From an uncultured Fibrobacterales bacterium (GTDB lineage: Bacteria > Fibrobacterota > Fibrobacteria > Fibrobacterales > CAWVXU01): a stretch of 17,385 nt of DNA. This document shows, one piece after another, positions 1-3,000 of the stretch. Position 1 is the first letter of the stretch. Each line of letters opens with the position of its first letter. The DNA lies in NCBI GenBank assembly GCA_963934255.1, contig CAWVXU010000058.1, positions 1 through 17,385 on the forward strand, in the 5' to 3' direction. The position numbers were made by a program.

Positions 1-3000
1 CTTATCAAGATACAACGACTTATCAAGATACAACGACTTATCAAGATACAACGACCTATCACTTAGACACTATACCCTTCTGTCCAGAAATTTATCAGCC
101 CGTCTGTGCAGGAGGGGTAACCTATGCGAACTCTTGTCAAGCTAGAGCTGCCAAGGTAAGGAGTCACACACCTGGTGAGTGCCCTATAGACAAACAAGGA
201 GTCAGGGTGTTGAGCATGGTAGATGATAGTGTTTCCATCTCTAAAGTAGATAGATACTTCAGCATGACAGCCTTTGGAGCAACAAAGCATTTGTATCATT
301 TTGTGGAGGACAATGCTATCTTATTAATTCAAATCTATAATGATTCAGCTCACTCTGCCACTGCCAAGGTCATTCTGTTTGATGTGAATGAGACTGTCTC
401 GTCGCTTGATAGATGGATCAATAATCAGGTATCTGATGCTCTTTATGCGAACGCTCCCCAACCGATGAGTGATTTAGAATTAACTCCAAATCAATTTAGC
501 CTCGTCAATCCATCCATAGCAGATAGCCTAACGGGTTCCTATGGTGATCAATGGGTGAATTATAATGTTACTTTAAAAGTAAGTGAAGTCATTCAAAACG
601 ATGTTTTCATACTAGAGAGCTTTGATGATTCGGCGATCGCACATGTGAACACGTATATGCCCTGACTTTAACTCAACTTTCATGAGTGCGACTATCAAGA
701 AGTCCATCGGCAGTGTCGGTGGATTTTTTTATATGCTAGTTTCATATTTTCTATAAACAATTGAGGGTCTCTAATTTTATTTTTGGCTTCAACGAGAATG
801 AATAAACCACACACGTATGGGATGATGATTTGAGCCTTATAGGTCCTAGAGTAAAAACCAAGAGTCTATTGAGCGACATCCTAATGAGATTCGGGTCGGT
901 GATACAAATTATATCGACACAAAGGAAGGATGGTTGTTTCTAGCCACAATCATTAATTTGTTTTCAAGAAAGGTTGTTGGTTGAGCCATGTCTAGTCCTA
1001 ATGATACTTAGCTCACAATTAATTTGATTATGATCGCAATTAAGTATCGAAAACCGAAAGAGGAAGTTGTCTTTCATTCAGGTTAAGGAGTTCAATATTC
1101 AGGTCTTTCATTTATCTCAACGCTAAAATCAAACAACATTCTGTTAAGTATGACCCGAAGAAGAAATTGTTACGAGGGTACAGTAGCAAAATCATTCTAC
1201 CAACTTTTAAAACGTGAAGAAATCAAAGCATAAAAATAGAGAACTTTGAATATATAGAATTATTCTATAATTCAAAAAGGACACATTGTCAATGTGGACG
1301 ACTATCACCGAAGAATTTCGCAAAGAACTATTATAAGTGTCTATCAAAACGGGTGCGATTCACTTCAAAGTGCGACCATATTTGGTAGGTATATATTGCG
1401 ATAGAATCAGGATTTAGTATTCACCACCTCGTTTTGTTTTTTGTTGTATTCTGCAAAAGCAGGGTTGGCGAAATCGACAGGTACATTGTCTTTGAAATTT
1501 CCAATGATCGCTTCGGCGGTAGCAGGGTTGGTGGCGAAGGGTATATGATAAACATCAGCTAGGCGACCTAAGGCTTCAATGTCAGCATGATGTGGGTGGG
1601 CTGAGAGGGGATCTCTAAAGAAAATAACGGCCCCAATACTTCCGGCAGCAATCATTGCACCAATAGCCTGATCTCCACCTAAAGGACCAGATTGAACCTT
1701 ACGCGACAACAATATCCCCGTTTCTTTGTGCAATAAAGAACCCGTTGTACCCGTAGCCACTAAGGACGATTTCTGGAGTACATCTTTGTGCTTTCGCACA
1801 AAATCCACTAGCACGGGTTTCATAGCATTGTGCGCCACAAGAGCAATGTAGCGTTTGTCATCTACCCAGTTTTCGTGTTCCCCTTCTTTTTTATGTTTGG
1901 CATAGCGAGCCCCAAAAAAGGATTTACAGGACATAGCAAGACGCAAGTCTTCACTGAAAAGAGCTTCAAATGAAGAAACACTTAAAATAGCGACAGTCAT
2001 ATCGGTTACGGCCCGCACATCTGCAGTTCGCAGTGCCTGGCTAGAAAACATGGCTTCTCCGAAAAAATCACCGACGACTAGACCTGCCCGCTTGAGGGAT
2101 TCGACCTCAACTTCGGCCGTGCCTTCAAGAATTATGCCTACAAAGTGGGCAGGTGTGTTGGCTCGGGCAACTAAACTGCCAGCGGCATAATTCTGCACAG
2201 AAAGATGCTTAGATAAATGCCCGAGTTGCAAGGGGCTTAAGTATGATCCAAGATCAGATTCAATGAGAGCTTTTTGGAGAAGAGTTGAAGTATAATCGTT
2301 CGAATTCATAGTTGATTACTTTTCAGGGTTAAAAGAGAATGAGATAAAAATTTAGATCATATATATGAATATACATTCTGTGTTTGATTTATTGCCTATA
2401 ACTTTTACTGTATGGTGTCGTAGCATCCCGCAGGGTGCTATGCACTATACACACTGTTGGACTTAGTTTTTATTTTCAGATTGAGTTTCAATTCAGTAAT
2501 TCTTCCATTGAAACTTGCCATTCATCCATCATTACTTTTATCTAATAGAAGAAGTCCGTTAGTATATTTTTTTAAGGTTGGACTTCCCCCGATATAGTGG
2601 AAACTTAGTTTAGGGTTGTAGAATACTTCGATATCGTAAAATATTTCTAATCGAGCATCTGCTCTTGTCTTGTAAATCTTCTTCTTAATCAACTCCTTTT
2701 TTATTGTGCTATTAAATGATTCTACAACTGCATTATCGTGGCAATTCCCTCATCGACTCATACTAGTGACAAGATTGTGATCTCTACAAAACGCATCCAT
2801 GAATCTGAATCCTATTGAGAACCTTGATCTGTGTTTATCATAACTTTTGATGTTGGATTTCTAGATGATACTGCTTTTACTAGAGACTCAATCACTAAAC
2901 ATTGGTGCATGTGGGGCTCCATTCCCGACTACCCTCTTCTTCTCAAAGATTGCTGTAATCTGTTCTATAGGTAGCGTGTTGACTTCTATTTCGAGCATAG

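Follow-up and report, generated by a model that had tools for sequence, protein, structure and literature searches.

A predicted cyclic-nucleotide-gated methylglyoxal synthase in a Fibrobacterales bacterium and its place in a clade with an altered phosphate relay

The window, which is the whole stretch of 17,385 nucleotides analysed here from the genome of an uncultured Fibrobacterales bacterium, carries on its minus strand a gene in which a cyclic-nucleotide-binding (CNB) domain is joined to a methylglyoxal synthase (MgsA), the enzyme that diverts glycolysis into toxic methylglyoxal. The plus strand of this region is rich in stop codons, and decayed integrase fragments of insertion sequences (IS) lie on both sides. 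The features of the locus are the following:

850..1385, plus strand: decayed IS integrase (rve) fragments in the downstream flank, with stops and frame shifts (PF00665, E 1.4e-4; PF13333, E 4.6e-4)
1407..2309, minus strand: CNB-MgsA fusion gene, 300 aa, with ATG at 2309 and stop at 1407-1409
1416..1463, minus strand: C-terminal helix, residues 283-298, a helix in the model, with Tyr288 (116 of 120 aligned fusions) and Gln292 (115 of 120)
1494..1856, minus strand: MgsA domain, residues 152-272, from NCBIfam, PDB and Foldseek matches, with 12 active-site residues
1827..1829, minus strand: Asn161 at the position of E. coli Asp20 (Asn in 115 of 120)
1878..1946, minus strand: long helix, residues 122-144, leading from the CNB domain to the first MgsA strand, from the secondary structure of the model (Ala125 in 119 of 120)
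1947..2195, minus strand: CNB domain, residues 39-121 (PF00027, E 1.1e-12, and CNB matches in the PDB)
2022..2063, minus strand: phosphate-binding cassette, residues 83-96, with Gly84, Glu85, Phe88 and Arg94 invariant and a non-canonical Met87
2525..2928, minus strand: decayed IS integrase (rve) fragments in the upstream flank, in the opposite orientation to those downstream (PF13683, E 3.3e-6; PF00665, E 1.7e-3)

The first-pass annotation had described a CNB domain and a complete MgsA fused in one 300-residue open reading frame, and Pfam, NCBIfam, PDB alignments and structure prediction agree with it. Pfam places cNMP_binding at residues 39-121 (model positions 2-89 of 89) and MGS at residues 167-260 (E 1e-15), both above the cut-off. 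The protein passes the NCBIfam equivalogs PRK05234 (160 bits against a cut-off of 84) and TIGR00160 (156 bits against 146.9), while two of its relatives lie slightly below the TIGR00160 cut-off, yet above that of PRK05234. In PDB sequence searches, residues 152-288 correspond to chain positions 11-146 of solved MgsA (5h3l, E 4e-35; 1b93, E 3e-33) and residues 6-125 align with the CNB domains of PKG and MloK1. The AlphaFold model (pLDDT 84.6, pTM 0.72) contains the helices 122-144 and 283-298, and a Foldseek search with it retrieves MgsA first, followed by the CNB domains of HCN, PKG, MloK1 and CRP. From its position in the model, helix 122-144 is likely the signal-transmitting C-helix of the CNB domain.

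A homologue search with the fusion reproduced the earlier count of 3116 matches among 8000 scored, with PF02142 and PF00027 together in all 120 of those listed. The ESM Atlas contains at least five clusters of such fusions under automatic names only. An artefact or misassembly is ruled out by the fused state of all 120 listed homologues and by the same DNA in another locus (L123) and in several marine sequencing runs. The protein was also correctly identified as the only MgsA of this 92% complete genome: a tblastn search with its MGS domain yields a single match, and the second PF02142 match of the genome sits in a 1096-aa frame that is probably CarB. A TIGR02147 match and the marine origin of the matching runs point to a probably marine host within Fibrobacterota.

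Several features set the gene apart from its host. Its GC content is 45.8% against 38.6% for the genome, and its MgsA half has no match in 60 genomes of the same order. The GC shift and the absence from the same-order genomes, together with the IS flanks, indicate that the gene was probably gained horizontally. The kefC/kefF genes adjoin it at 3046-5539, and Kef protects against methylglyoxal (PMC10224563). A functional link was considered and rejected, because a Kef neighbour is found in just one of 78 loci of relatives, namely L123, whose DNA is 99.9% identical to that of the window; around L124, the closest relative apart from this one, the genes are different, and an IS remnant lies between the fusion gene and kefC/kefF. 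The link is further weakened as neither glutathione synthetase nor glyoxalase I (PF00903) was found in the 92% complete genome, and the Kef adjacency is probably incidental. The same two null results make a full methylglyoxal bypass, which had been assumed for this organism, doubtful here. TIM, three phosphofructokinases (PFKs) and two aldo-keto reductases are present in the genome. In two marine metatranscriptome studies, contigs of runs that had been found with the fusion gene as query match 1596-1836, 1867-2037 and 1961-2264 without mismatch; DNA in the library is a possible source, and the matches are a weak hint that the gene is transcribed. A promoter and terminator scan at the gene gave nothing above chance.

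The sensor half was compared in an alignment of 120 sequences, consisting of the query and 119 homologues from the 120 listed of 3116, the match identical to the query being excluded. The cassette reads FGEAMFSSQALRTA in the fusion. Gly84, Glu85, Phe88 and Arg94 are present in all 120 sequences and Ala96 in 119, and the Glu-to-Arg spacing of 8 residues is constant, with a median identity to the query of only 33% over the CNB domain. Four of five Asp20-type CNB-MgsA fusions inspected are without the cassette Arg, so that Arg94 is not retained by default. The cassette also aligns ungapped against Plasmodium PKG. It had been called intact, which is right for Gly, Glu, Arg and their spacing, but not for the residues that follow Gly-Glu: the canonical motif is FGE[LIV]AL...R (PMC2246266), and the fusion has Ala-Met-Phe in place of [LIV]-Ala-Leu. 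Positions 86-87 are Ser-Met or Ala-Met in 86 of the 120 sequences, and position 87 is Met, Leu or Ile in 112.

The unusual Ala86-Met87 bears on a different reading, in which the MgsA is active and its N-terminal partner responds neither to cAMP nor to cGMP but to another nucleotide, AMP or a phosphorylated metabolite, or is merely structural. CNB folds can bind other ligands (PMC2246266), Pro53-Ala54 is invariant and specific to the clade, and a relative with EF-hands, CNB and MgsA (L021) has a degenerate cassette. Such a reading is nevertheless quite improbable given the complete conservation of Gly, Glu, Arg and the 8-residue spacing, and given the cyclase and CNB genes that neighbour some relatives.

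As for the choice between the two cyclic nucleotides, a Thr after the cassette Arg favours cGMP in PKG (PMC3765617). Of the 120 fusions, 60 have Thr at this position, as does the query, while 13 have Ser and 47 another residue. With Thr or Ser in just 73, no cGMP determinant appears to be conserved, and a cGMP preference, as the PKG top matches might suggest, is unsupported. The genome has four class III cyclase frames, as had been counted before, plus one fragment; the four read KTIGD, KTVGD, KFIGD and KYEGD and have Asp or Thr at the second position, and the same Lys and Asp/Thr positions occur in three fusion-adjacent Synechococcus cyclases. We take these positions to mark adenylate cyclases and presume on this basis that the cyclases of the genome are of the adenylate type. 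The apparent lack of a conserved cGMP Thr and the presumed adenylate type of the cyclases make cAMP a more likely ligand of the predicted sensor than cGMP.

The catalytic and phosphate-pocket residues of the MgsA half are all kept. H160, K164, T186/T188/T189, S207, G208, D213, D233, H240, D243 and R249 of the fusion are equivalent, in this order, to H19, K23, T45/47/48, S65, G66, D71, D91, H98, D101 and R107 of E. coli, with residue roles taken from PMC7843640: in E. coli numbering, H19, D71, H98 and D101 are catalytic, and K23, the TGTTG stretch, S65 and G66 belong to the phosphate pocket. All 12 are kept in 115 of the 120 aligned fusions. The MgsA interface residues D233, P234, D243 and R249 are present, and the relay formed by Pro92, Arg107 and Val111 is retained as P234, R249 and V253. 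Three other positions have changed across the clade: Asp20 is Asn in 115, Asp99 is His in 118 and Arg150 is Gln in 115 of the 120, with all three changes in 112. The equivalence of Gln292 to Arg150 comes from PDB alignment numbering and from the tail quoted in PMC4133812. The Asn at position 20 had been flagged as a possible refutation of enzyme function; it is indeed there as Asn161, but it is a clade-wide trait rather than a private one. Asp20 is present in every one of 54 further MgsA loci (L027-L080).

According to PMC4133812, the phosphate signal in MgsA is relayed by a salt bridge between Asp20 and the Arg150 contributed by the adjacent subunit. For the Thermus enzyme the same paper gives a kcat of 326 per s, against 0.41 per s for the Asp10Asn mutant, a drop of about 800-fold, with Km almost unchanged (0.50 against 0.75 mM). 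The same source has Thermus MgsA functioning without the Arg150 tail, which is thus of the E. coli type and not universal (PMC4133812). Because the Thermus enzyme is active without it, loss of this relay is no proof that phosphate inhibition is lost. Judged from its residues, the clade has lost one phosphate relay and yet bears a change that cripples plain MgsA. The Asp20Asn enzyme of E. coli is reportedly inactivated gradually by DHAP.

The natural Asn20 speaks in favour of another reading, namely that the MgsA domain is a binder of DHAP or phosphate with little methylglyoxal output, and either catalyzes another triose-phosphate reaction or acts as a two-input sensor, for cAMP and triose phosphate, that regulates a partner such as PFK. 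It equals the mutation made in the laboratory, which costs the enzyme about 99.9% of its kcat with Km retained (PMC4133812), and glyoxalase I was not found in this genome. Against this, the catalytic base Asp71 and His19, His98 and Asp101 are kept in 115 of 120 fusions and also across bacteria and algae, the protein is without an output domain, and each of the 27 other carrier genomes has genes of the glyoxalase family, a broad one. In addition, copies in the clade that are non-catalytic lose their catalytic residues, as described below. We regard a low-activity protein of this kind as unlikely, and a dead pseudo-enzyme produced by drift is ruled out by the 12 residues kept in 115 of 120 and by their loss from eroded tandem copies. 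From the conserved residues we infer that the clade synthesizes methylglyoxal.

A genome scan for relatives returned 80 of 439 loci. Among these, CNB fusions are found in Trichodesmium erythraeum IMS101, marine Synechococcus, Cyanobium, Verrucomicrobiota and Latescibacterota, and also in Deltaproteobacteria, Gammaproteobacteria, Brocadiaceae and Spirochaetales. An MgsA with Asn20 and Gln150 also follows EF-hands in proteins of Nostoc, Brasilonema, Hormoscilla and Synechococcus, in all 5 that were scanned, and in a flavobacterium it is preceded by EF-hands and a degenerate CNB domain. CNB and EF-hand sensors occur together in one chain in some members of the clade. A profile search of 1.84 billion representatives gave 3857 matches, of which the best 150 were listed and 107 of those scanned with Pfam. 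Among the matches listed, 22 are EF-hand fusions, 20 of them with Asn20, and 20 are CNB fusions, 17 with Asp20 and 3 with Asn20. The clade extends to eukaryotic algae, with the raphidophyte Fibrocapsa japonica, whose protein is annotated 'Calmodulin', and the coccolithophore Calcidiscus leptoporus. In a FastTree phylogeny built from 204 domains, the CNB-Asn20 proteins group together (support 0.93) next to a clade of EF-hand fusions (0.93), and both are nested in a mostly Asn20 group (0.88) with Asp20 CNB fusions basal; the deeper nodes are weak.

The Gln tail and Asn20 go together. In 125 intact domains the Gln tail pairs with Asn in 48, with Ser in 1 and with Asp in none, and 26 Asn20 domains are without an aligned tail. 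Two MgsA matches are present in 22 listed proteins, and 12 tandem proteins combine an intact Asn20 domain (8 of 8 checked residues) with an eroded copy (0-6 of 8). The YxxxQ tail, located 48-56 residues past Arg107, is kept in the eroded copy in 12 of 12 and lost from the intact copy in 11 of 12. This split between tandem copies indicates that the Gln tail acts in trans, on the active site next to its own, in the manner of Arg150 in E. coli. Since dead domains erode in the clade, single-domain members such as the query are arguably under selection for function. Because the sequences behind the tandem pattern and the Asn/Gln pairing are related to one another, they represent few independent events, one or a few in the case of the tandem proteins. 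It is tentatively suggested, with somewhat less than even confidence, that an unrecognised clade has exchanged Asp20/Arg150 for a trans Asn/Gln gate with interchangeable second-messenger sensors, CNB for cAMP and EF-hands for calcium.

Gene neighbourhoods, defined as two ORFs to either side, were compared in metagenome loci, 78 of 80 having a target that could be recognised, many on short contigs. A class III cyclase is a neighbour in 14 (12 with the KFIGD motif and 2 fragments), another CNB gene in 16, and neither of the two in 53. The cyclase-linked loci belong mainly to one picocyanobacterial clade of the tree. Cyclases are present in 18 of 20 carrier genomes, and in the complete genome of Synechococcus CUG2137 the sole cyclase found is the gene adjacent to the fusion, which also weighs against a ligand other than a cyclic nucleotide. 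The fusion is the only MgsA match in 15 of the 20 carrier genomes, most of them incomplete MAGs. PFK is a neighbour in 12 of the 78 loci, absent in 66, and also flanks the fusion at L003, L006 and L009. This linkage arises in four subclades with differing gene orders and two PFK families, and its repetition lends some weight to a low-activity partner of PFK. The subclades were taken from a tree of 91 sequences of at least 220 aa, shorter ones being excluded; single-linkage clustering at 75% had chained 71 of 95 loci. Neither a cyclase nor a PFK was found by Pfam in the fusion's own neighbourhood in the window.

Direct gating of a fused catalytic domain by a CNB domain is known from cAMP-regulated fusions such as the mycobacterial protein acetyltransferase Rv0998/PatA and from PycTIR of the Pycsar system. 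Both have a CNB-enzyme layout like that of the fusion, with a different enzyme. The resemblance to PycTIR raises the idea of an anti-phage effector, in which a cyclic nucleotide triggered by infection switches on toxic methylglyoxal and the cell dies. Weak PADLOC matches (E 6e-5 to 2e-7) confined to the CNB region, the patchy spread (0 of 60 same-order and 2 of 201 cyanobacterial genomes) and the IS flanks are in line with it. However, a Pycsar defence operon consists of two genes, one for the cognate pyrimidine cyclase PycC and one for a TIR or TM effector, and the fusion has no such arrangement: there is no cyclase in the window, and the cyclases adjacent to relatives are of the CHASE2/FecR membrane-sensor type, carry an adenylate signature and are often convergent rather than co-operonic. 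No defence genes were found among the scanned neighbours, and the PFK linkage and the EF-hand and algal forms point to metabolism, so that a role in defence is very improbable.

Taken with slightly better than even confidence, the best explanation is that the fusion is a methylglyoxal synthase gated by a cyclic nucleotide, most likely cAMP. The invariant cassette, the cyclase neighbours and the clade-wide loss of Asp20-Arg150 support gating indirectly. The proposal of a methylglyoxal bypass gated by cAMP or cGMP is upheld to this extent, but it presumes an activity that the Thermus Asp10Asn enzyme has nearly lost. In the mechanism we envisage, the subunits would assemble as in other MgsA and the C-terminal Tyr/Gln helix would enter the active site of the neighbour. 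The resting enzyme, with Asn at position 20, would be slow, and the docked Gln tail would complete the site. Binding of cAMP at Gly84-Glu85 and Arg94 would shift helix 122-144 and alter the docking of the tail, and this change would switch the conversion of DHAP to methylglyoxal and phosphate. The EF-hand fusions would place the same catalytic module under calcium control. Activation by cAMP is somewhat favoured over inhibition, since an MgsA with the Asp-to-Asn change alone has almost no activity.

The two halves of the predicted enzyme are familiar individually. MgsA (EC 4.2.3.3; E. coli 1B93, Thermus 2X8W, B. subtilis 6F2C) shares its fold (Foldseek TM by target 0.7-0.9), about 45-52% identity, the catalytic and phosphate-pocket residues, the Pro92/Arg107/Val111 relay and, in E. 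coli, the C-terminal helix. The enzyme of B. subtilis is said to be controlled by the protein Crh. Known MgsA is a single-domain hexamer with subunits of 125-160 aa under phosphate control (PMC4133812), whereas the fusion adds an N-terminal CNB domain and has Asn, His and Gln for Asp20, Asp99 and Arg150. With the CNB domains of PKG, HCN, MloK1 and CRP/GlxR the fusion has in common the beta-roll, the FGE...R.A cassette with PKG-like spacing, and the hinge and long C-helix; it differs in Ala-Met for [LIV]-Ala and in its effector, which is a small-molecule lyase instead of a kinase, channel or DNA-binding domain. MgsA is joined to another domain also in a cyanobacterial fusion (L105, L207) with a partner that we take, from its motifs, to be diacylglycerol-kinase-like. 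In that protein MgsA is N-terminal, retains Asp20 and is joined to a domain other than a second-messenger sensor; Trichodesmium carries both this fusion and the CNB fusion.

The pair of CNB and MGS domains is visible in databases. In full-text literature searches, with a coverage that omits most subscription papers, no CNB- or EF-hand-fused MgsA was found. 'Methylglyoxal synthase' had no co-mention with 'cNMP' or 'EF-hand' in the full texts searched, and its sole co-mention with 'cyclic nucleotide-binding' was in separate rows of a Leptospira table. The main text of an ocean-metagenome survey of CNB domains does not contain methylglyoxal, although its supplements may list the architecture, and the available parts of the reviews PMC11852113 and PMC12096831 do not mention second-messenger control of MgsA. 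Both domains are thus known, but their combination and the rewired MgsA clade appear to be undescribed.

Why bacteria keep an MgsA that makes a toxic electrophile, and what activates it, is a long-standing question; the controls described so far are inhibition by phosphate and Crh. If the proposed gating is true, second messengers would switch methylglyoxal production directly, and methylglyoxal would become a regulated signalling output under cAMP or, for the sister fusions, under Ca2+. On the less certain reading for the whole clade, it would be made on command, as a signal or a phosphate-release valve, and not as an overflow by-product. This would include algae, where methylglyoxal is usually regarded as non-enzymatic in origin. 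The clade is also a natural experiment on Asp20, the residue whose laboratory mutation cripples MgsA, and a ligand-switchable MgsA would serve 1,2-propanediol engineering. In phosphate-poor seas, the proposed gating would couple glycolytic overflow and the release of phosphate to environmental sensing in organisms that include Trichodesmium, marine Synechococcus, a raphidophyte and a coccolithophore.

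Elsewhere in the window, the gene for the fusion of a cyclic-nucleotide-binding (CNB) domain to methylglyoxal synthase (MgsA) is accompanied by the following:

3046-5539, minus strand, kefF-kefC pair
9538-10410, minus strand, TIGR02147 family protein, of a family typical of Fibrobacterota
11308-13398, plus strand, large acidic secreted protein without a Pfam match
13379-15247, plus strand, Peptidase M66-family lipoprotein

The adjacency of kefF-kefC and mgsA is not conserved, and glutathione synthetase and glyoxalase I have no match in the window's genome, which carries kefF-kefC. 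An 18-base unit stands in about three tandem copies at the contig start (1-59). A short repeated element lies upstream of the fusion gene (2396-2468 and 8039-8163); the latter stretch is also matched by 2581-2705, at 87%, and stretch 2405-2459 recruits many unrelated contigs.

In marine Synechococcus, the island surrounding the CNB-MgsA fusion (loci L011, L014, L016, L017 and related metagenome loci) encodes a FecR + CHASE2 adenylate cyclase, an MscS-CNB channel and small CNB proteins, and would be a compact cAMP signalling module.

The MgsA type of the CNB fusion, with Asn and Gln in place of E. coli Asp20 and Arg150, is also joined to an EF-hand pair in the cyanobacteria Nostoc, Brasilonema, Hormoscilla and Synechococcus MIT S9452, as well as in the alga Fibrocapsa japonica (L022:3598-4431, L023:5644-6468, L024:5662-6462, L025, L026, L031 and the P0154 protein cluster). 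These proteins are candidate calcium-gated methylglyoxal synthases. An isochorismatase-family domain, an EF-hand and Asn20 MgsA share a single chain in P0174, P0196 and P0198. EF-hand, CNB and MgsA are combined on one chain in L021:5686-6825 (Flavobacteriales MAG), where the CNB cassette is degenerate, and in P0132 and P0134.

Tandem MgsA proteins (P0138, P0141, P0142, P0144, P0160, P0162, P0163, P0166, P0168, P0193, P0208, P0209), at least one of coccolithophore origin, pair an intact domain with an eroded one that retains the C-terminal Gln tail.

Canonical Asp20 MgsA occurs in dephospho-CoA kinase-MgsA and MgsA-NUDIX fusions (P0215, P0224, P0266). It is likewise joined to CNB (L018:3910-4932, L019:5905-6717; P0192, P0218, P0235, P0244). 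Several of these CNB fusions lack the cassette Arg; the Spirochaetales forms carry a textbook cassette and are the simplest test case.
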